A DNA stretch of 64,000 nt, from NCBI GenBank assembly GCA_963813815.1, contig CAWFAD010000012.1, forward strand, positions 160,001 through 224,000, written 5' to 3'. The notes under the pieces are model-generated. The model saw nothing but the letters and a program-made list of their open reading frames with translations, ran no database searches and was not told where the DNA came from. Each line of letters starts with the position of its first letter. Positions within the stretch are counted from its first letter, which is position 1. Both the position numbers and the translations under genes were made by a program. Shown here piece after piece: positions 53,657 to 63,875 of this stretch. This DNA comes from an uncultured bacterium (GTDB taxonomy: Bacteria > Krumholzibacteriota > Krumholzibacteriia > Krumholzibacteriales > Krumholzibacteriaceae).

Positions 53657-56600
53657 CTATCGCGTGACGGCGAACTTCCTCGCGCCCTTCCAGCTCCATC
53701 CGTCGTCGCCAACGACCTCGACGCGGCAGACATAGACTCCGCCCGCGAGCTCCCCGGCCGAAAAGCCCGCCTCGAACGGCACGGCGCTTCCCGACGGCCA
53801 GTCGTGACGTGCGTCGCGGGAGGCGACCTTCTCCCCCTCGAGATCGAATATCGTCACCGCGACGCGGGAGGGCTCGGATATGAGCAGCCGCACGGTGAAA
53901 GACGCGCCCCTCACGGGATTCGGATAGACGATGAAGGACGCGGGATCCACCGCGAGCCCGGACTCGTTTCCTCCCGCGGAGGCGGTCTGCCGGCCGCTCC
54001 CCCGTGAATCGTGACGGTAGCACGGCCAGAGCTGAAGATCCGACAGGGACGTTCCCAGCTCGTACCGCCGGATCGACGTGACGGCGCCCGACGAGATCTC
54101 CCCGGCCGGAGCGACGCAGGCGCAATCGACGATATAAACATCGCCGGCCTCGCTTTCGAGCAGCGCGAGCGAGCCCCCGGCCGCTCCCTCGCCGGGAAGA
54201 GGCCAGCCCGGCATTTCGCGGCCCGCGAACTCCAGAGCGTGGATATCGCCCCCGACGCGGAACAGAATCTCGACGCGGCCGTCGCCCGTTATGTCTCCGG
54301 CGACCGGGGGAACCACCGGCACCGGCCGGTACGCCTCGGCGACGCCCGCGTCGATCGCGCGCGGCCATCCGGAGACCGGAACGCCGAACCCGGAGAATAG
54401 GTACAGGCACGCTTCGTCGCGCAGCGCCGTCTCGAGCGTCCCGTCGCCGTCCACGTCGGTGAGGATCGGCGATGAGGGCGAGCCTCCTCGAAGGGCCGCC
54501 CGGTGCGTCGCGCCGGAATATTCGCAGTAGCAGAGGCCCCATCCGGGGATCGCAGCCGCCACTTCATCGGAGCCGTCGCCGTCGATATCTCCCGTCGCGA
54601 TCGAGAGAAGGCCCGGAGGCGCTGCGGCGGTGATCTGTGTCAGGGTACGCATATCGCCGGTCCCGGCCGGACCCGAGAACTGCAGGAAATGGAAGCGGAT
54701 GAATGCTCCCCCGGATGCGGCGAAGCACATCCCCTCGAGCGCGACGCCGGCGGAGGGTTCCTCCATGACGGCGAATGCCGGAACGGAGGCGAGTCTTCCC
54801 CCGGCGATCGGCAGCTCGATCCCGTCGATCCCCCGCTCGACCCACCCGGCTCCGGGCCACGTGCCCCCGCAGCCGAGCACGCAGAGATACGTGCTGTCGG
54901 CGCTCGAGCTGAGCGCGATGAGCAAGGGCCCCGGCATGCCGTCGACGCCGTCGGCGATCATGAGGGCGGCCCTCTCCTGCCCCCGGAGCTGGATCGTCAT
55001 GGGGGTCGCGTCGTCGTCGATCTCGACCGGAGCGCCCGACCAATCATAGGCCCGCAGCACGCCACCGCGCGAGACGACGAATATCGCCGGATCGAGGGAA
55101 GCTCCCCAGAGGCCGGCGACCGGCGAGGCGATCCATTCCGCGCCGGGCTCTCGAACGATCTCCTCCGCCCCCCCGCTCCAGCCCTCCGCGCCCGCCTCGG
55201 CGAGCCACAGCGTTCCCGAATCGGCGGCGATGAGCATCCGGTCGCCCGTCCCGCCGTCGACCGGCGCGGCGATCGGGGTCGCGGCGCCGAGCCCCGCGGC
55301 AAACTCGCCTCTCGTATAATCGATCTCGAGCGCGAACCGCACTGAGAGCGTCATGTAATGGCCGGCCCCGGATATCGCGGATATTTCGATCCCGCTCGGA
55401 GCGCCGCCGTTCGTATGGCTCGAGGGATCCGTATCGGCGGCGAAACGATCGTTGTTGCCGGCCCGGTACGAGTCGAGGAAGCTCCCGAACGAGAATTCCC
55501 CGCCGGGGCGGTCGAGATCCTGTATGCCGTCGGCCTCCTCGAGATCGACTCCCTTGAAACGCGGATCGTCGTTCGGGAAGCCGCCCGCTTCGAGGGCCGT
55601 CCGGATCGCCGTCTCGTCGACGTGCCAGATGAGGAGGCCGCTTCCCGTGACGACGCTGTCCGGCGCCGGGCGCGGGTTGGACGAGGCCGTTATGAAGAAA
55701 TCGAACTCGGCGCCGCGGAGCGTGTCTCCGCTCTCCGGTATGCCGTTGAAGTTGCTGTCGATGAAATCGAAATCGCCGCTGAAATCCGCGTCATGGACCC
55801 TGTTCTCGACGAGGTAGTACTCCGAGGAGTTGACGACGATCTTGACGAGCCCCGTATCGGCGGGGATCGCCGTGCTCACATCCGCGAGACGGAGCGCCGC
55901 GTCCCCCGAGACGACGAGCGGCGCGGCCCAGCCCATGAGGCACCGGTTGAACGCCGAGGGGAACGCCGGAACGAATCCGAGCGCGTTGTAGATTCCGTAA
56001 CCCATGAGATCGAAATTGCCGCACCCCTGCGAATCGGGATAGTCCCCGGGAGTCGTATCGAAGAGCGGCACCATCCCGAGGCGCAATCCGACCTGGTAGG
56101 CGTAGATGCCGAGCGAGCCGAAGGTATAGCCGTCTTGCGAGCTCTGCTCCGGCCAGACCATCAGATTGTCGAGGAAGAGCGTGTCGCCGGGAGCGCCGTC
56201 GTTCGTGGGAATTCCCGGAAGGCCGAGGGTGTCGGGGAGCGCTTGCGCCATCTCCTCCGGGTTGACGAACCCCGAATAGAGCTGGTACCGCGAGTCGCCG
56301 TTGAAATCGGTCTCCCGCCCGGCGCCGGCATGAATCACGGCGACGGCGTCGTAGCGGCCGAAATCGACGGAATCGTCGCGAACCCGGACGACCTCCTTGA
56401 GAATCTCCGCCATGCGCTCTTTCCAGAGATTTTCTTCGCCGTAGTACGCCTCCGGCTCGCCCAGCGCGACGATCCCGGGCATGAGCTCCCATCGAAGGTC
56501 GAAGATTCCGAGCGAGGCCCCTTCGAAATACTCGGCGAGGTGCCGCAGCTCGTTCGCGAAATAGATCGAGTCGAAAACCGACTCGAACTCCCGGTCGGCG

Positions 56601-56809
56601 AACGAGACGCGGAAGACGCAGACGCGGAGCGATTCGGCCCGCGCGCCGCCCCCCGCGAGAAGCGTGCTCACCGCCTCGAGCTGATACGGTCCGAGGGAGC
56701 CGCCGCGCGGCGCGGCAGGGATCGATGTTTCGGCCGTGACGCCGCGCGAGGCGCCCGCAACGAGAAGCGCGCAGAGAAGCGGCGCCGCGATACGATGGAT
56801 TGGTTTCAT
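53657..56809 (-). CDS. M6 (immune inhibitor A-like) metalloprotease homolog lacking HEXXH, with FG-GAP/VCBS repeats and T9SS-like C-terminal domain
   Basis: VIHAGAG, FDLMGYG, MGW, EYYLVENR, GLLIWHVDE, VDLEEADG; GDIDGDG repeats; YPNPV..GGVY; HEXXH position reads YQVGL. Confidence 0.8.
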   Translation of the reverse strand: MKPIHRIAAPLLCALLVAGASRGVTAETSIPAAPRGGSLGPYQLEAVSTLLAGGGARAESLRVCVFRVSFADREFESVFDSIYFANELRHLAEYFEGASLGIFDLRWELMPGIVALGEPEAYYGEENLWKERMAEILKEVVRVRDDSVDFGRYDAVAVIHAGAGRETDFNGDSRYQLYSGFVNPEEMAQALPDTLGLPGIPTNDGAPGDTLFLDNLMVWPEQSSQDGYTFGSLGIYAYQVGLRLGMVPLFDTTPGDYPDSQGCGNFDLMGYGIYNALGFVPAFPSAFNRCLMGWAAPLVVSGDAALRLADVSTAIPADTGLVKIVVNSSEYYLVENRVHDADFSGDFDFIDSNFNGIPESGDTLRGAEFDFFITASSNPRPAPDSVVTGSGLLIWHVDETAIRTALEAGGFPNDDPRFKGVDLEEADGIQDLDRPGGEFSFGSFLDSYRAGNNDRFAADTDPSSHTNGGAPSGIEISAISGAGHYMTLSVRFALEIDYTRGEFAAGLGAATPIAAPVDGGTGDRMLIAADSGTLWLAEAGAEGWSGGAEEIVREPGAEWIASPVAGLWGASLDPAIFVVSRGGVLRAYDWSGAPVEIDDDATPMTIQLRGQERAALMIADGVDGMPGPLLIALSSSADSTYLCVLGCGGTWPGAGWVERGIDGIELPIAGGRLASVPAFAVMEEPSAGVALEGMCFAASGGAFIRFHFLQFSGPAGTGDMRTLTQITAAAPPGLLSIATGDIDGDGSDEVAAAIPGWGLCYCEYSGATHRAALRGGSPSSPILTDVDGDGTLETALRDEACLYLFSGFGVPVSGWPRAIDAGVAEAYRPVPVVPPVAGDITGDGRVEILFRVGGDIHALEFAGREMPGWPLPGEGAAGGSLALLESEAGDVYIVDCACVAPAGEISSGAVTSIRRYELGTSLSDLQLWPCYRHDSRGSGRQTASAGGNESGLAVDPASFIVYPNPVRGASFTVRLLISEPSRVAVTIFDLEGEKVASRDARHDWPSGSAVPFEAGFSAGELAGGVYVCRVEVVGDDGWSWKGARKFAVTR

Positions 56810-56973: not shown

Positions 56974-57936
56974 CTACTCGGTGGTTCGTTGTGCGGACTC
57001 ATCGTCCCGTGTCCATGCTACCCTCTCAACGATGGGGGGAATCGCTGACCTCTCGGCCAAGCTCGTTGTGCTCGCTGTCGGGCCGGGCATCGCGGTCCTC
57101 GACGATGACGAAACATCTATCTCCGTACCGCTGCCCGGCGCGGCCGGAGCGAGGTCGCGGTTTTCGGGGTCGATCTGATACGCCCACAGGAAGGTGACGT
57201 AGTCCCCGTTGACCGCCGTGACATACAGCTTCGCGTAATGGTAACCGTCCGTCTCGAGGAGCCGCACGATGTAGCAGTGATCGACGATCGCCTCGACCGT
57301 GCGGGAGGGGGACCAGCCATCGAGCGGAGCGTAGTTGATCACATCGAAGTCGGTGACGTATCCGTAATCCTGCAGCTCCACGTTGGCCCGCCACGCCTCG
57401 ATGATGGCGATCTCCGGCGTGCCGAAGAAGAAGATATCCGTCGTCGAAAGGTTGTACCGCTGCGGGGCGTTGCTGAGGCTCGAGAGATCGTATCCGGCGG
57501 TCTCCGGAAAAGTCTCATAATCATCGAGAGCGAGTATGCCCTCCGGGCGCGGCGTCGCGGTGACCTCTTCGTAGCTGAGCTCGCTCTCGAGCCCGCCGGT
57601 GTCGAACGCCGTCACCGCGTAGTAGTACTGCTCTCCATTCGGCCTGATATCCTCGAAGCAGAACTCGATCTCGGTCGATTCCTCGACCAGCACGGTGCCG
57701 ATATGGACGTATTCGCCGTAGAAATCCACGCCGCGGTAAACGTCGTAACCTTCGACATCGTCCTCGTAGTTCGCGAGCCAGCAGATGAGCGCCGATCCGT
57801 CGAGATTCACGGAGTAGACGTTGCGGGGCGCGGAAGGAGGGCAATCGGCCGGAACGGGCACGATCACGCGCTCCTTCTCACCGCAGGAGATGAGAAGAAG
57901 CGTCAGCACCGTTATGATCGCCGTCAATCTGTTCAT
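56974..57936 (-). CDS. Lipoprotein with FN3-like domain
   Basis: Lipobox LISC; PPSAPRNV..W..DVEGYDVYR..YYYAVTAFDTGGLESELS; GGAGG SD. Confidence 0.8.
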   Translation of the reverse strand: MNRLTAIITVLTLLLISCGEKERVIVPVPADCPPSAPRNVYSVNLDGSALICWLANYEDDVEGYDVYRGVDFYGEYVHIGTVLVEESTEIEFCFEDIRPNGEQYYYAVTAFDTGGLESELSYEEVTATPRPEGILALDDYETFPETAGYDLSSLSNAPQRYNLSTTDIFFFGTPEIAIIEAWRANVELQDYGYVTDFDVINYAPLDGWSPSRTVEAIVDHCYIVRLLETDGYHYAKLYVTAVNGDYVTFLWAYQIDPENRDLAPAAPGSGTEIDVSSSSRTAMPGPTASTTSLAERSAIPPIVERVAWTRDDESAQRTTE

Positions 57937-57963
57937 TTCATCGCTCCTCCGCGCTCGTATATC

Positions 57964-57978
57964 GCAATCGATGTGCCA
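57964..57978 (-). promoter_or_regulatory. Sigma54 promoter of the FN3 lipoprotein gene
   Basis: TGGCAC-atcga-TTGC exact consensus, 27 bp upstream of the ATG. Confidence 0.8.
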
Positions 57979-58198
57979 TGTGTCGAAGAAGAGGCGAAAA
58001 CGGCCGCCGAGGGCAGCTCCGCGGCAGCCAACGGGAGTGATTTGAACGAATTGCGGCGTGTGAAATTTATTCGCCGAGGCCGCGGAGACGGCGCCGTGCC
58101 TCCGGCGATGACCCGTATCCTGTCGTCGGAACTCTACAGAGATGTCCTCATCGATGGACAGAACCGATTATGGGGAACGACGAATCTCGCGGGGGGCG

Positions 58199-58300
58199 AA
58201 AAAGAATAGTCAGAGGCATAAGGTGTGAGCACCGGAGGGGATGTCCATACTCACGTTCCTTAGGATCTCGCCAATCCAAAAGTTACTTATGCCCCTGACG
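58199..58300 (-). ncRNA. Candidate ~100-nt three-way-junction sRNA (RNA B)
   Basis: 14-bp closing helix 58286-58299/58209-58222, two internal stems, G-U wobbles only on minus strand, upstream sigma70 promoter, trailing UAUUCUUUUU. Confidence 0.65.
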
Positions 58301-58306
58301 GAGACG

Positions 58307-58336
58307 ATGCTATGAGAGAAGGGATTTGAGAGTCAA
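58307..58336 (-). promoter_or_regulatory. Sigma70 promoter for RNA B
   Basis: TTGACT-18 nt-TAGCAT; predicted start coincides with the 5' end of the helix. Confidence 0.6.
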
Positions 58337-58383
58337 GCAAATTTTCGCGGCGCCCGAGAGGTACCGCCTGGCGCCGAGCGCCT

Positions 58384-58526
58384 AAAAATCAAGCGGAGAG
58401 AAACCTCCCGCTTCTTGTCCTAGAGACCCCACCTTTTCCCCTTCTAGCTCCAGGAGAACCTAGCTTGACAAGAAGCCTTTGATCTCTCTCCGCTTTGCCG
58501 ATCCCCTTCGCCAACCGATACCTGAA
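58384..58526 (-). ncRNA. Candidate ~140-nt long-hairpin sRNA (RNA A)
   Basis: AAGCGGAGAGAGAUC/GGUUUCUCUCCGCUU (15 bp), 4x4 purine loop, GCUUCUUGUC/GACAAGAAGC (10 bp), U tract after the helix. Confidence 0.6.
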
Positions 58527-58537
58527 CAGGTGAATAG

Positions 58538-58552
58538 GCATGGGGCGTACCA
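58538..58552 (-). promoter_or_regulatory. Putative sigma54 promoter for RNA A
   Basis: TGGTAC-gcccc-ATGC: GG and GC at correct spacing, two mismatches to consensus. Confidence 0.5.
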
Positions 58553-58668
58553 AATGCGTCCAGAAGGTCAAATTGCGCGTGAAATTTAACTTATTATATT
58601 ACAACAAGATGCGGCGCACCTCGCCGGGGCGCCCGCGACCCGGACCACGCCATTTCGCCGCGTGGAGC

Positions 58669-58740
58669 AAGAAGCTTGATATTTTTGGGATCGTCCCCGT
58701 ATCCCATTATTTATAATGCCGTTAACCTATCAAGCATCTT
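58669..58740. promoter_or_regulatory. 13-bp inverted repeat, candidate upstream activator sequence
   Basis: aagaagcttgata (58669-58681) and tatcaagcatctt (58728-58740), 12/13 complementary. Confidence 0.45.
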
Positions 58741-58804
58741 TATAGCGTTTGTATACCACTTGAATAAATCGTACTGGCGGACCACGGGGGGGATTTGAAC
58801 GCTA

Positions 58805-61800
58805 TCAGTAACCGTCCGCGATCCTGAGGTCGCGGATCTTCTTGAGGAGAGTCGGGTAGCTGATGCCGAGCTCGCCGGAGGCGACGCTGCGGTTCCAGCC
58901 GTTGCGGATGAGACACTCGGATATCACGCGCTTCTCGAGGTCCTTCACGCGGTCGGGCAGCGAAAGGCGATGCCGCTGCATCGTCGAATGCTCGCCCTCG
59001 TCGAAATCGATCGCCTCGGCCGTGATGATCCCCTCATCGTCGGTGATGATCACGGAGCGTTTCACGATTTTTTCGAGCTCGCGAACGTTCCCCGGCCACT
59101 CGTAAGCGGCCAGCAGGGCCAGCGCATCCTCCGCGAAACCGCGCACGTGCTTCTGCATCCGGTCGCCGAAGACCTTGAGGTAATACTCCGCGAGCAGGTG
59201 GATATCCTCGATCCGCTCCCGCAGCGGCGGAATCGTGATCGGAAAATCGTTGATCCGGTAATAGAGATCCTCGAGCATCGCGCCGTCCTTGACCATCGTC
59301 ATGAGATCGCACTTCGACGCGAAAACGAGCCGGACGTTCACGGGGAGCATATCGTTTCCCCCCACGGGACGCACCTTCATGGTATCGAGAAACTGCAGCA
59401 ACTTGCCCTGGAACACGACCGACGTCTTGGAGATCTCGTCGAGGAACACCGTGCCCCCGTCCGCTTCCGCGATCAGGCCCTTTTTGTCGCAGATGGCGCC
59501 GGTGAAGGAGCCCTTCACGTGGCCGAAAAGCTCGCTCTCGAGAATCGTCTCGGGGAGCGCCGCGCAGTTCACGTGGACGAATTTGCGCTCGCGCCGCGGG
59601 CTCATCGCATGGATGGCCTGGGCGACGAGCCCCTTCCCCGTTCCGGTCTCGCCCATGAGCAGCACCGTCACGTCGGATTGCGCGACCTTCCCCGCGAGGT
59701 TGAGCACGCGGAGCATCCTGTCGTTGCGCGTTATGACGTGGCGGAAATCGCCGATCCTCTTCCCCGGCTCATCCTTCGCCGCGGGAGACTGCACCGCGCT
59801 CCCCTGAACGAGGAAATCGATGAACGAGGCGTACGAGGCGACGACGTCCGGAACCTGACCGATGCGCGGAGGCAGGCTGCCGTCGGCGTCCGACTGGAAG
59901 AACAGAAGCCCGAACGGCTCGCGGTCGCGGCAGAGCGGGTGGACATAGATCGGCCCGCCGCTGCCCGGAAGCTCGTCGCGGATCGCGGCCGTGCGCCGGT
60001 CGCGGAGCACGTCCGTGAGGAGCGCGCTGGAGGCGCAATCGGCGTCATCCCTGTCGAGGAACCATTCGGTGATCCGGCGGGCGGACTGCTCCGGAACGTC
60101 CCGTCTGGCGAGCACCGTCACCTTGCGGCCGCCGGCGCCGCCCGCGAAGAGCGCGACGAAGCCGTACCGGAAGGTGATCTTTCCCATGAGATCGCCGAGG
60201 AGATAGTCGAGCACCGTGATGAGGTGCGGATGTTTGGCGAGCATGCCGGACGTCTCAGCGGAGATCCCGGCCCCCGCCGCGGGCGAAGAGAGGTCTCCGG
60301 CGACCTCTTCCTCGATGCTCCGGCGCATCCTCCGCGCGCGGCGCAGCAGGTTGCGGTCGCGCAGGTCCTCCGCGATGCGCTGCGCCTCGTAGAGGTGCAG
60401 GAGGCATTCGTCCCGGTTCTTCATCTCGCGCTCGACGCGCGCCATGAGGAGATGGCTCTCCACGAGATCGCGGAACTCGTCCGTCCTCTCGAAATAGTCG
60501 AGCGTTCCGAGAACGAGCTTGCGGGCGCGATGGAACGAGTCCGTTCCGGCCTTCGTGACGAGGTGCTCGGCGAAGAGCAGGGCCGTCCGGTGCTCCTCGT
60601 ACAGATTGTTCGAGTCGTGGAAGATCCTCATGCCGTCGGCGATGCGACGCTCCGATTCGTCGGAGTTGCCGAGCATCGCGTGGGCGAGAGCGACGGTCCT
60701 CTGGATATAGCCGATCTCGTGCGCTTCCCCGCACTTGCGGGCTACCTCGAGCGCGCGGGTGCCGACCGCGACCGCTTCCTCCGCCTTGCGCTGCCTGAGG
60801 AAGATCTCCGTCTCGCGCCGGAGCACCTCCGCGACGATGTCCCCCTCGGCGGATATCTTCTTTCCGCGCGCGAGCGCGGTCGAGTAGTTCTGAAGCGCTC
60901 CATCGAGGTCGCCTCTCGCCGCCATGAGATCGCCGAGATACTCGTCGGCGAGCGCTATCTCCCGCCCGAACCCGCGCCGCTCGGCGAGAACGCGCGCCTC
61001 GAGCAAATGCTTCTCGGACGCCGCGAACTCTCCGGTCCTCGCCTGGGTGACGCCGAGCTCGAGCGTGCTCCGCACGTAGAGAAGCTCGTTCCCCGCGAGA
61101 TGACTCATCTTTCGCGCGCTCGCGAAAGCGCTCTCCGCGCTCGCGAAGTCCCGCGACTTGAGGTGCGTGATGCCGAGGTTGAGCGTCACGCGCGCCCGGT
61201 GCTGGCCGAGACCCATCTTCTCGCACAGCTCGAGCGCGCGGCCGAAGAAATGGATCGATCTCTGGAAACGGCACGCATCCTTGTGGAAAATTCCGAGGTT
61301 GTTGAGCACGTGGGCCTCGCCCACGAGATCCTCGATCCGCCGGTATGAGGCGAGCGCGTCGAGAAAATATTGCTCGGCCTCGTCGCGCTTCCCGAGCCGG
61401 TGATGGCAAACCGCCAGCAACACCTGCACCCGGCCGACCTCGCGATGCTCGTCGGAGGTGCGGAGCAGGCGGTACGCCGTGAACGCCTCCTGAAGCGCCT
61501 TGTCGACCGCGCCCCGCTCGCGGAGAATGATGCCCCGCAGGTGCGCGAGCGTGCCCTTGCCGAACGAGTCGTTCTCGTCGCAGTTGGCCTCGGCGCTCTT
61601 GAGATACGTGGCGGCCTCGTGCAGCAGCCCCTTTTCGATGTAGGACGCGCTGATTTTGCGGTAGATCCGCAGCAGATCGGCCGGCTGCGGGGCGGCGTGT
61701 ATTTTCTGGAGGGCCTTCTCGTAATACTCGAGCGCCACGGAGAAGTTCTCCGTGGAAAAATGCATGTCTCCGAGCTCTTCCTCGGAGCCTATCGCATTGT

Positions 61801-61864
61801 ACTTCGGCCCGGACTTCTTCTTTTCGTATTCGAACTCGTCCTTGCCGCGGGAATCGTCAGGCAT
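58805..61864 (-). CDS. TPR-repeat sigma54-dependent enhancer-binding protein (TPR - linker - AAA+ - Fis HTH)
   Basis: ~500 aa of TPR-like helices; GETGTGK, ESELFGHVKGSFTGA, FLDEI, WPGNVREL; HTH NRSVASGELGISYPTL. Confidence 0.9.
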   Translation of the reverse strand: MPDDSRGKDEFEYEKKKSGPKYNAIGSEEELGDMHFSTENFSVALEYYEKALQKIHAAPQPADLLRIYRKISASYIEKGLLHEAATYLKSAEANCDENDSFGKGTLAHLRGIILRERGAVDKALQEAFTAYRLLRTSDEHREVGRVQVLLAVCHHRLGKRDEAEQYFLDALASYRRIEDLVGEAHVLNNLGIFHKDACRFQRSIHFFGRALELCEKMGLGQHRARVTLNLGITHLKSRDFASAESAFASARKMSHLAGNELLYVRSTLELGVTQARTGEFAASEKHLLEARVLAERRGFGREIALADEYLGDLMAARGDLDGALQNYSTALARGKKISAEGDIVAEVLRRETEIFLRQRKAEEAVAVGTRALEVARKCGEAHEIGYIQRTVALAHAMLGNSDESERRIADGMRIFHDSNNLYEEHRTALLFAEHLVTKAGTDSFHRARKLVLGTLDYFERTDEFRDLVESHLLMARVEREMKNRDECLLHLYEAQRIAEDLRDRNLLRRARRMRRSIEEEVAGDLSSPAAGAGISAETSGMLAKHPHLITVLDYLLGDLMGKITFRYGFVALFAGGAGGRKVTVLARRDVPEQSARRITEWFLDRDDADCASSALLTDVLRDRRTAAIRDELPGSGGPIYVHPLCRDREPFGLLFFQSDADGSLPPRIGQVPDVVASYASFIDFLVQGSAVQSPAAKDEPGKRIGDFRHVITRNDRMLRVLNLAGKVAQSDVTVLLMGETGTGKGLVAQAIHAMSPRRERKFVHVNCAALPETILESELFGHVKGSFTGAICDKKGLIAEADGGTVFLDEISKTSVVFQGKLLQFLDTMKVRPVGGNDMLPVNVRLVFASKCDLMTMVKDGAMLEDLYYRINDFPITIPPLRERIEDIHLLAEYYLKVFGDRMQKHVRGFAEDALALLAAYEWPGNVRELEKIVKRSVIITDDEGIITAEAIDFDEGEHSTMQRHRLSLPDRVKDLEKRVISECLIRNGWNRSVASGELGISYPTLLKKIRDLRIADGY

Positions 61865-61937
61865 CGGTTACTCCCAAAGGCAAAAGGTCGGCGATTCATC
61901 GTTTCCCGGACGAGAAAATCTCTCTGTGCTCTCGCAT

Positions 61938-62291
61938 TCAGTTCCTGTCGAGGCGCGGTTTCGAACCGATCCTTTCCAGGCTGCTATCCGCGCAATCGAT
62001 GATGGTCGTCAGCGTAGAACCCGGATTCGCGATTCCGTCCCCGGTTATTCTGCCGTTGCCGAAATCATCAGCATCGCCGCCGAGGATGCAATCCGATCCA
62101 TCGTCCGACACCGGAATCTCGCCCTCGGTCATGAAGAAAAACGATCCGCAGAAGGGGAACGCGGTCGTCCGGATGAGGGCGGCGATCGACTGGATACGGA
62201 GCTCGAACGATGAACGTGCGGCAGAGACATCCGAGGAGGCGAAGATGGTGAGAACCAGTAGCGCAGAGAGGAGTGCCATGAGCCGTCTCAT
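61938..62291 (-). CDS. Small secreted protein / candidate signalling pro-peptide (117 aa)
   Basis: GAAGGAG SD; signal MRRLMALLSALLVLTIFASSDVSA; acidic Gly-rich core GGDADDFGNG; 3 Cys. Confidence 0.7.
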   Translation of the reverse strand: MRRLMALLSALLVLTIFASSDVSAARSSFELRIQSIAALIRTTAFPFCGSFFFMTEGEIPVSDDGSDCILGGDADDFGNGRITGDGIANPGSTLTTIIDCADSSLERIGSKPRLDRN

Positions 62292-62361
62292 ACTACCATC
62301 TCCTTCTAACCTGGAGCCTTGCGGCCCCCCCCCACACACTCAACCCAAACCTTCACTATCA

Positions 62362-62390
62362 ATAATAATATCCCTCGCTCCCCCCGTCAA
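62362..62390 (-). promoter_or_regulatory. Sigma70 promoter for peptide-TPR activator unit
   Basis: TTGACG-17 nt-TATTAT with AT-rich upstream DNA. Confidence 0.65.
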
Positions 62391-62412
62391 ATAATTCTTT
62401 TGAAACTACAAT

Positions 62413-62436
62413 AGAAAATCGGCATTTAGCCGATTT
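62413..62436 (-). terminator. Probable terminator of the response regulator gene (or operator palindrome)
   Basis: aaatcggc-attta-gccgattt inverted repeat with short U run. Confidence 0.45.
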
Positions 62437-62483
62437 ATCGGAAATTTTATTCTATAGGTTCTTCCACCCATCGCGGGGCGGCG

Positions 62484-63875
62484 TTACGGGGAATCTATCG
62501 AATCGCCGCCTCCCGCTTCCTTGCGGAACTCGATCCCGTACTTTTCGAGCTTTTTGTAGAGGTTGCTCCGCTGCATGTCGAGCTGCCGGGCCGTTCGCGA
62601 GACGTTGCCGTTGTTCTCCCGGAGCTTCTTGAGGAGGTATTCCTTTTCCATGAAATCCTTGAACTCCTGATAGGTCTGGAGTCCGAAGGGATCCTTGCGC
62701 GCGTCCTCCTCGCGAGTGAGGGCGAGCGCGGGAAGATCGTCGCGCCGGATCGTCTCGCCGCTCGTGAGGATGCAGAGGCGCTCGATGAGGTTGCGCAGCT
62801 CGCGCACGTTACCCGGCCACGCGTAGGTCATGAGCGCGTCGAGGGCGTCCGGGGCGAGCTTTTTCGCCGAGCGGCCGAGCTCTCCCGCGACCTGCCGCAG
62901 AAAGTACTCGGCGAGCATTTTGATATCGGATTTGCGCTCGCGAAGCGGCGGAATGCGGATGGGGACGACGTTCAGCCGGTAGAACAAATCTTCCCGGAAC
63001 CTTCCCTTCCCCGCCTCCTCGAGCAGGCTCTTGTTCGACGCGGCGAGCACCCGCACGTCGACCCTTTTCGTCTCCGCCGCGCCCACCCGCTCGAAGGCCG
63101 ACTCCTGGAGAACGCGCAGCACCTTCGCCTGCGCCGAAAGGCTCATGTCCCCCACCTCGTCGAGAAAGAGCGTGCCCCCGTCGGCGAGCTCGAACTTGCC
63201 GATCCGCTGGGAAACGGCCCCCGTGAAAGACCCCTTCTCGTGGCCGAAAAGCTCGCTTTCTATGAGGTCTTCGGGGATCGCGGCGCAGTTCACCTCGATG
63301 AAGGGCTCGTCCACCCTCTTGGAGAGCTCGTGCAGCTTGCGGGCGACGAGCTCCTTGCCCGTGCCGTTCTCTCCCGTGATGAGCACGCGGGCGTTCGTCG
63401 GCGCCACCCGGCTCACCGTCTCCATGATGGCGAGCATTTCGCGATGCACTCCGATGATCTCGGTCTTGAGTCCGACGCGCTGCTCGAGCTGGACGTTCCG
63501 GCGGGCGAGATCCGCTTGCGCGAGTCCATTTCGTATGGTGAGGAGCAGGCGCTCCATGTCGATCGGCTTTTCGAGAAAATCGAACGCCCCGAGCTTCGTC
63601 GCCTCGACCGCCGTGCCGATCGTGCCGTGTCCCGAGATGATGATGACGGGGAGGGAAGGGTGCCGCTCCCTGAGGGATCCGAGCACCTCGAGGCCGTCCA
63701 TGCCCGGCATCTTTATATCGAGGAGAACGATATCGACCCGCTCGCTCGCCGCGAGATCGAGGGCGGCGCGGCCGTCGGCGGCGGAGAAGGTCTTGAATTT
63801 CTCGAACGAGAGAAGCCTCTCGAGCGAGCTTCTGATGCTTTCTTCGTCGTCGACGATGAGAACGCGTTTGCTCAT
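62484..63875 (-). CDS. NtrC/NtrX-family sigma54-dependent response regulator
   Basis: LIVDDE, LLDIKMP, ISGHG, FLEKP; GENGTGKE, GSFTGA, FREDLFYRLNV; C-terminal HTH. Confidence 0.93.
   Translation of the reverse strand: MSKRVLIVDDEESIRSSLERLLSFEKFKTFSAADGRAALDLAASERVDIVLLDIKMPGMDGLEVLGSLRERHPSLPVIIISGHGTIGTAVEATKLGAFDFLEKPIDMERLLLTIRNGLAQADLARRNVQLEQRVGLKTEIIGVHREMLAIMETVSRVAPTNARVLITGENGTGKELVARKLHELSKRVDEPFIEVNCAAIPEDLIESELFGHEKGSFTGAVSQRIGKFELADGGTLFLDEVGDMSLSAQAKVLRVLQESAFERVGAAETKRVDVRVLAASNKSLLEEAGKGRFREDLFYRLNVVPIRIPPLRERKSDIKMLAEYFLRQVAGELGRSAKKLAPDALDALMTYAWPGNVRELRNLIERLCILTSGETIRRDDLPALALTREEDARKDPFGLQTYQEFKDFMEKEYLLKKLRENNGNVSRTARQLDMQRSNLYKKLEKYGIEFRKEAGGGDSIDSP

Follow-up and report, generated by a model that had tools for sequence, protein, structure and literature searches.

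A small exported protein and a sigma54 activator with a tetratricopeptide repeat (TPR) domain are encoded side by side in a window of 64,000 nucleotides from an uncultured Krumholzibacteriota bacterium (GenBank GCA_963813815.1, contig CAWFAD010000012.1, positions 160,001 to 224,000), followed by a sigma54 promoter and a small structured RNA, RNA1 (Table 1). Comparison of these loci leads us to regard as probable an ancient core circuit, common to Krumholzibacteriota and Eisenbacteria, in which a rewired TPR-GAF sigma54 activator reads a four-residue acidic peptide derived from its own exported precursor and drives a single, Hfq-independent RNA of a new family. This reading covers either peptide signaling through an intracellular receptor in diderm bacteria or the sensing of Sec export by way of unexported precursor. 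The cassette is a real, ancient and, it appears, undescribed regulatory unit. The initial annotation of this DNA had not recognized the arrangement as a described one, and our search of open-licence PMC papers and bioRxiv likewise returned no description. Each part listed in that annotation was found at its place on the minus strand; its 13-bp inverted repeat (58669-58681/58728-58740) is present, and is in fact two copies of a 17-bp palindromic enhancer. The annotation had overlooked the invariant core in the small protein, the GAF-like domain of the activator, the sigma70-like promoter of RNA2 and the second, distinct enhancer ahead of the lipoprotein promoter.

Distribution of the cassette and its promoter

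The TPR region of the activator was detected in 147 of 151 Krumholzibacteriota genomes, among them all 117 of high quality, and the activator with its cassette also occurs in Eisenbacteria. While the search with the TPR alignment returned Krumholzibacteriota-type loci only, a family-specific AAA+ pattern recovered 119 stretches, of which 80 were used with their flanks (43 labelled Eisenbacteria), the other 39 being too short. Precursors and activators were compared in 134 complete pairs, including 23 near pairs that were chosen for having the core motif described below. Since related loci are not independent, counts of loci here measure conservation and are not statistical replication.

An open reading frame (ORF) with the core lies upstream of the activator in 27 of the 28 near loci having upstream DNA; the near-locus exceptions are L009, which has no small ORF, L026, a fragment only, and two loci without upstream DNA. 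A signal-peptide ORF occupies the same place in all 67 loci from another six families, one of these ORFs being truncated at 48 aa, in 33/34 Eisenbacteria-labelled loci and in 18/18 otherwise-labelled loci. Under the same rule, a control set of 69 generic bacterial enhancer-binding proteins (bEBPs), taken from a search with the full-length activator alignment, yielded seven with a signal-peptide-like ORF and none with the core. The synteny of small ORF and activator, which had been set beforehand as a test that could refute the proposed circuit, therefore holds strongly across two phyla. In this genome the two ORFs are separated by 73 bp, and a loose sigma70-like pattern precedes the operon in 83 of 92 Krumholzibacteriota loci. 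The cassette occurs mostly as a single copy and is inherited in line with the host tree, with one change of phylum and seven of family. Many genomes of family f4 have two to four TPR matches; the single paralogue examined, at L132, is accompanied by a precursor of its own, with neither promoter nor RNA following the activator. Four contigs with the cassette (L032, L344, L378 and L320) are labelled Patescibacteria, Bacteroidota, Fibrobacteraceae and Methylomirabilota, probably through binning or label errors.

A sigma54 site lies 170-380 nt past the activator stop codon in 131 of 142 loci, compared with 240 of 2840 shuffles, so that the downstream -24/-12 site of the initial annotation proves to be conserved. 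Sigma54 promoters depend on an activator to fire, and upstream of this one the palindrome TATMAA-N5-TTKATA was found in 114/120 loci, with two copies in 70/120; its mean best score, from a matrix trained on these same loci, was 16.4 versus -2.2 in shuffled sequences. Genome-wide, enhancer copy 1 is the best of all sites (21.0 bits; next 16.9), and the combination of enhancer and promoter ranks first among 99 sigma54-like promoters, its own site being one of the 114 used for training. Based on the top-scoring site and top-ranked promoter, the regulon looks like one gene, and the linkage suggests that the palindrome belongs to the TPR activator. The genome also encodes rpoN. The second-ranked sigma54-like promoter with enhancer-like sites (G000:C10 104788, minus strand; 10.1 and 6.0 bits) could mark another target or reflect no more than AT-rich DNA. 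Between the enhancer and the sigma54 promoter of RNA1, an AT-rich stretch (58580-58605) is partly kept in relatives; we take it to resemble an IHF site.

The precursor core and its candidate receptor

The 117-aa precursor belongs to no Pfam family, nor to any NCBIfam family near cut-off. It is laid out as a signal peptide (residues ~1-24), a hydrophobic helix (~29-54), a Gly/Asp linker, the core (72-80) and a variable tail. Precursors are 80-125 aa long across the family, with 24/134 at or below 100 aa. All 134 have a basic N-region and hydrophobic stretch (the selection rule for most of them), 118/134 have an AxA-like site by a loose pattern of our own, and two have a lipobox. Within this poorly conserved chain, where the mature part retains 20%-35% identity while the activator retains 34%-71%, the core stands out with the two-phylum consensus G-[DE]-[PA]-D. 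The core or close variants of it occur in 131/134 precursors, including 108 of the 111 that were not selected on it, as opposed to a mean of 11 and a maximum of 22 in shuffled precursors. Position 1 is G in 100% (fixed by the search rule), position 2 is D in 85% or E in 15%, position 3 is P in 54% or A in 26%, and position 4 is D in 87%; D follows in 54% and then G four places on in 50%, with unconserved flanks. All synonymous codons are used at the G, D, A and D of the core in the 27 near loci, indicating that selection acts on the protein. The hydrophobic helix precedes the core in 21/23 near precursors (families f1-3) and follows it in most other groups. Two loci, L304 and L362, have tandem core repeats, and RRNPP propeptides, as described in PMC9765709, can also carry repeats of their core. 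There were no orphan precursors among the 180 small signal-peptide-like ORFs of the genome. An arrest peptide was rejected for want of a fixed spacing: by rough first-match positions, the start of the core ranges from about residue 28 to 88, and its distance to the end from 25 to 91 residues.

The 1019-aa activator has Pfam-type TPR, Sigma54_activat (E 6e-60), AAA lid and HTH_8 domains and falls below every NCBIfam equivalog cut-off among the 25 matches listed. Its structure model comprises 12 TPRs with a capping helix (residues 27-524), a GAF-like alpha/beta domain (546-689; based on the model here and on PF01590 in relatives), an AAA+ module (711-955) and a Fis-type helix-turn-helix (HTH; 973-1011). 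With the TPR model (predicted local distance difference test, 92.6) as query, VIA-align gave LGN (Z 27.2, root mean square deviation (rmsd) 6.0, 317 aligned), Pins (26.0), OGT (25.6), Rap with peptide (25.5, rmsd 4.0, 340 aligned), RapI (23.4), NprR-NprX (23.1, rmsd 5.5, 341 aligned), MalT domain III (23.0), AimR (20.1) and PlcR (19.6); RRNPP proteins were absent among the Foldseek matches listed. As far as the model goes, these matches are of the peptide-binding type and do not show RRNPP descent. The top structural neighbors, superhelices of the LGN/Pins, OGT and MalT types, include several solved with bound partner peptides, but none of them is a sigma54 activator or has an exported precursor as cognate partner.

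Fifteen polar TPR residues are fixed in both phyla (R156, R175, R176, N188, N189, K195, N229, R301, E308, D342, E346, R350, E383, R514 and E518), and, by TPR numbering, R156, N188, N189, K195, N229, E308, E346 and R350 probably face the groove of repeats 4-9. Columns 184, 224 and 232, which track D versus E of the core, are confounded by ancestry and were not used. The internal core peptide of NprX has one invariant Asp that is bound by Arg126 of NprR, with Asn residues binding the backbone (PMC3763537). An invariant Asp core opposite a basic, Asn-lined TPR groove parallels NprX-NprR, and from these patterns of conservation we judge it quite likely that the core binds the groove. If it does, TPR-peptide signaling would extend to diderms and sigma54 activators would gain a new input class, and a near-universal regulatory circuit and new RNA families would be added to two uncultured phyla.

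The initial annotation proposed an RRNPP-like input, which stands for the Sec signal, the TPRs and the adjacency of the two genes, and fails for receptor size, architecture, phylum and, narrowly, precursor size. The 117-aa precursor marginally exceeds the RRNPP(A) range of 10-100 aa given in PMC10075063, whereas the receptor, at 1019 aa with 12 TPRs and a capping helix, is well outside 250-500 aa and 5-9 TPRs. RRNPP(A) receptors have an N-terminal HTH or three-helix bundle (PMC9765709), while AAA+ and the Fis HTH are C-terminal here. In both, receptor and Sec-type propeptide genes are direct neighbors, but here the precursor lies upstream, is usually longer than 100 aa and has an extra hydrophobic helix, the output is sigma54-dependent, and there is no pherotype spread. 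Cores are short and internal in both, SKPDIVG with its invariant Asp in NprX and GDPD, GEPD or GDAD here, and NprR-NprX and Rap-Phr share with the cassette an Asn/Arg-lined groove, occasional core repeats and similar folds (Z 19.6-25.5). Cytoplasmic receptors of the RRNPP type have been described for Bacillota (PMC10075063, PMC9765709), whereas the hosts here are the diderm Krumholzibacteriota and Eisenbacteria. The cassette would function in the RRNPP manner without belonging to the group, and detection rules based on receptors of 250-500 aa would miss this one.

The AAA+ module has a GAFTGA-type loop, the Walker A lysine, Walker B, sensor II, an HTH and a linked enhancer and promoter, as expected of a sigma54 bEBP, but not the full RxDxxxR motif, also a bEBP feature (PMC3419264). 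The first Arg is Leu in 134/134 homologues (85/85 of those not selected on it), and the activator here reads MLEDLYYRIN. Moreover, the Glu after the Walker A lysine has become Gly in 131/134, the DEIGE Glu is Lys or Arg in 134/134, and the LLR Arg is mostly Gln or His. Nonetheless, the loop (GSFTGA here) is intact as GAFTGA or GSFTGA in 128/134, and K744, D809, E810, D866, R870 and R928 are invariant in all 134. According to PMC3419264, the first Arg is the R-finger of PspF, in which R162A has a kcat of 0.18 and R162K stays active, and the second has been proposed as the finger of NtrC1; the equivalent of the latter is retained in the activator family. Simulations of NtrC1 describe salt bridges E174-R253 and R293-E239 (PMC9020082). 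The equivalents of E174 and R253 were lost together and a basic residue was gained at 813, which suggests a rewired site. The loss of this Arg, raised as a caveat in the initial annotation, is thus real and atypical; degeneration is not borne out, as the loss is family-wide, the changes are coordinated and catalytic residues are fixed, and decay of the ATPase appears unlikely. With the PspF-type R-finger gone in all members, the family provides a natural test of which arginine bEBPs need. Distant TPR-bEBPs of about 1000 aa also exist (P0144, P0161, P0175, P0189, P0201, P0220 and P0262), some of which keep the first Arg and carry a different HTH.

Candidate mechanisms

The mechanism that we tentatively place first is a one-component, peptide-gated sigma54 switch with a re-imported pheromone. 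The sigma70 operon, whose layout is observed, would provide the Sec-exported precursor together with its receptor. The core would be exported, trimmed and returned to the cytoplasm, probably via Opp/Dpp, and would there bind the groove of TPR4-9, lined by conserved Asn, Arg and Lys. Binding would switch AAA+ activity, on or off, at the tandem enhancer, and sigma54-RNA polymerase would transcribe one target, RNA1, acting through its GUGGGG loop without Hfq. Opp/Dpp-type components are present in the genome (three family-5 binding proteins, two permeases and two Opp ATPases).

Several observations weigh against a pheromone. Conserved cleavage residues flanking the core were not found, and GDAD is shared by 27/27 near loci and turns up again in families f6 and f9, without pherotype-like diversification. 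The mostly single copy and tree-like inheritance fit a housekeeping function. In the window, none of the flanking genes was recognized as an importer or peptidase, and the genome, 90.8% complete, yielded no SbmA. The best matches of the TPR model (LGN, Pins and OGT) are generic, and the Arg lost from the AAA+ module is the PspF R-finger, whose R162A mutant is nearly inactive (PMC3419264).

Because pherotypes and cleavage motifs are missing, copies are single and inheritance is tree-like, a second explanation stays strong as a competitor, although we consider it rather doubtful: the core may bind the TPR domain only as long as the precursor is still cytoplasmic. Slowed Sec export, from a jammed translocon or lost membrane potential, would then let the precursor build up and switch the activator, and RNA1 would adjust the synthesis of envelope proteins. 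FlgM and ExsE follow a similar retention logic, here applied to Sec. Monitoring of export suits a near-universal cassette with a core invariant over whole families, a hydrophobic helix that is kept while shifting from before to after the core, and a diderm envelope, as two membranes need not be crossed twice. On the other hand, the tandem core repeats in two loci suit released peptides, the AxA-like sites, loose as the pattern is, suggest normal cleavage, and Opp/Dpp components are at hand for the pheromone.

It is unlikely that the small protein instead acts outside the cytoplasm, in the periplasm or membrane, where its acidic core would bind either a metal or some partner in the envelope; the TPR and GAF-like domains would then sense something else, and the two genes would share no more than their transcription. 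The nearest ESM Atlas clusters are RTX calcium-binding repeats (0.86-0.87), a lead only; the GAF-like domain could carry the real input, and the conserved groove could bind an intramolecular segment. However, four conserved residues standing alone in a hypervariable Gly/Pro/Asp chain are what one expects of a linear TPR ligand, and in both phyla the core is fixed next to a TPR receptor, along with which it has been duplicated. A protein with little or no activator function that sits on the enhancer to repress or to serve as a scaffold, conceivable from the four replaced bEBP-typical residues and the near-inactivity of PspF R162A (PMC3419264), is highly improbable given the intact loop and invariant catalytic residues, the retained NtrC1-type finger, the joint loss of the salt-bridge pair, which points to rewiring, and the maintenance of a promoter that needs an activator in 131/142 loci. 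Now that a putative ligand core has been defined, along with groove residues, enhancer and promoter, the peptide-gated switch can be tested directly in E. coli.

RNAs and neighboring genes

Both structured non-coding elements proposed by the initial annotation are supported, RNA1 as a predicted sigma54-driven transcript and RNA2 with a sigma70-like promoter of its own in this order, rather than a sigma54 one. Folding z-scores are -3.8 for RNA1 and -4.8 for RNA2, with 0/200 shuffles equally stable. Two-sided changes were found in 14/31 pairs of RNA1 (15 sequences) and 13/30 of RNA2, and the covariation of both exceeds 500/500 column shuffles, which ignore relatedness. The GUGGGG of RNA1 is present in 81/87 Krumholzibacteriota loci but only 6/54 Eisenbacteria-type loci, and in many families sits as the loop of a freely varying stem. 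Among the six Krumholzibacteriota misses, one has an inserted gene displacing the promoter and both RNAs, and one has an HTH-less activator. In L430/L017, an inserted 719-aa gene separates the activator from an intact block of sigma54 promoter, RNA1 and RNA2. In L431/L020, a single-contig genome, the activator match stops at residue 930, before the HTH. Neither RNA was found there, a large secreted gene taking their place, and a joint loss of HTH and RNAs is possible.

The RNA2 model matched 30/121 genomes, 27 of them in this order, counting that of the window. The GGCGAG hairpin of RNA2 was not found in families f6 or f7; in families f4 and f8 the sigma54 transcript appears to include it. Three genomes have second RNA2 copies away from the cassette (L427 ~1520-1626, L428 and L429 ~1490-1600); two precede a small secreted Cys-rich protein and an Rrf2-like gene (by eye), and one follows a response-regulator pair. 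Family f7 (L077, L104, L106 and L107) has, after the RNA, an operon resembling cytochrome c and alternative complex III (by eye) and not the lipoprotein gene. Rfam, with the Qrr, CrcZ and Pxr families included, gave no match at gathering score in the window (best E 3.7), and one chance match (E 0.34) in eight related loci.

Small RNAs are the main output of other sigma54 activators, such as LuxO-Qrr of Vibrio, where Qrr action is Hfq-dependent, and CbrB-CrcZ of Pseudomonadaceae. Both receive their input from a phosphorelay and work on or together with Hfq, whereas Hfq was not found in any of the 41 Krumholzibacteriota genomes searched, in a search whose control fired in 5/14. RNA1 is consequently not of the Qrr type, and the LuxO/Qrr-like output suggested initially has to be given up in favor of the layout of Nla19 (PxrR)-Pxr in Myxococcus xanthus, where a multi-stem RNA is driven by sigma54 ~260 nt past the activator gene (PMC5568312), comparable to the distance of about 190-350 nt from activator stop to promoter in the cassette. 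Nla19, however, is a response regulator, while here a TPR-GAF input is paired with a partner precursor and the RNA matches no Rfam family. As regards a sponge of the CsrB/RsmZ type, which goes with CsrA and many GGA loops, CsrA was found in 21/41 genomes; searches of this genome and of families f3, f6 and f9, which keep RNA1, did not find it, and the invariant loop is GUGGGG, not GGA. Few functional CsrAs have been predicted in these two phyla (PMC13443453).

No target of the RNA1 loop was found: CCCCAC occurs in 8/85 precursor leaders and 12/85 activator leaders, and a genome scan gave three weak matches. Pairing of RNA1 with RNA2 as a sponge was not supported, with a cofold gain of 0 to -10 kcal/mol in 20 loci and no C-rich loop seen in the family f4 and f8 RNAs inspected. 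Pairing of the RNA2 loop with the ribosome site of the precursor gave -10 to -23 kcal/mol, in inconsistent register, with no control and with 2/19 rows mislocated.

Table 1. Positions of the cassette and adjoining features in the window
Feature	Position	Strand or distance	Remarks
Sigma70-like promoter, small-protein/activator operon	62362..62390	(-)	10/12 consensus matches
117-aa Sec precursor ORF	61938..62291	(-)	signal peptide ~1-24, no known family
Precursor core GDADDFGNG, putative ligand	62052..62078	(-)	residues 72-80
1019-aa sigma54 bEBP	58805..61864	(-)	TPR, GAF-like, AAA+, Fis-type HTH
Enhancer copy 1, palindrome TATMAA-N5-TTKATA	58728..58744	~-191 from sigma54 site	21.0 bits
Enhancer copy 2, weaker	58665..58681	~-128 from sigma54 site	7.7 bits
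Sigma54 -24/-12 promoter of RNA1	58537..58552	(-)	2 departures from the consensus
RNA1, ~140 nt, predicted ends	58383..58526	(-)	closing stem, U-tail, GUGGGG loop 58432-58427
Sigma70-like promoter of RNA2	58307..58336	(-)	TTGAC...TAxxxT in register, 20 aligned near loci
RNA2, ~100 nt	58196..58301	(-)	three-way junction, GGCGAG loop, C-rich loop resembling an anti-Shine-Dalgarno sequence
Second, distinct palindromic enhancer TGTCC-N8-GGACA	58143..58160	~-183 from lipoprotein promoter	17.6 bits
Exact sigma54 promoter of lipoprotein operon	57963..57978	(-)	
320-aa lipoprotein, lipobox LISC, Fn3-like	56974..57936	(-)	syntenic
NtrC/NtrX-like response-regulator bEBP, neighbor	62484..63875	(-)	syntenic

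The lipoprotein gene, listed initially among the elements of the circuit, probably lies outside the output of the activator. The activator's enhancer is absent within 270 nt of the lipoprotein promoter (best -8.0 bits), which is preceded by a different palindrome, TGTCC-N8-GGACA (strict in 43/105 loci, weak in Eisenbacteria). The gene is therefore probably the target of another activator, perhaps the NtrC/NtrX-like neighbor; long-range action of the TPR activator may also occur. As RNA2 has its own sigma70 promoter and the lipoprotein a different enhancer, the direct output of the activator is probably RNA1 alone. An NtrC/NtrX-like bEBP lies upstream in 85/92 Krumholzibacteriota loci and 1/50 Eisenbacteria-type loci. 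Further along, 53657-56809 (minus strand) encodes a 1050-aa M6-like protein without zinc motif, with FG-GAP repeats and a weak type IX secretion tail (NF052323, 185 bits, cut-off 600), and the 309-aa ORF after it looks PorV-like by eye.

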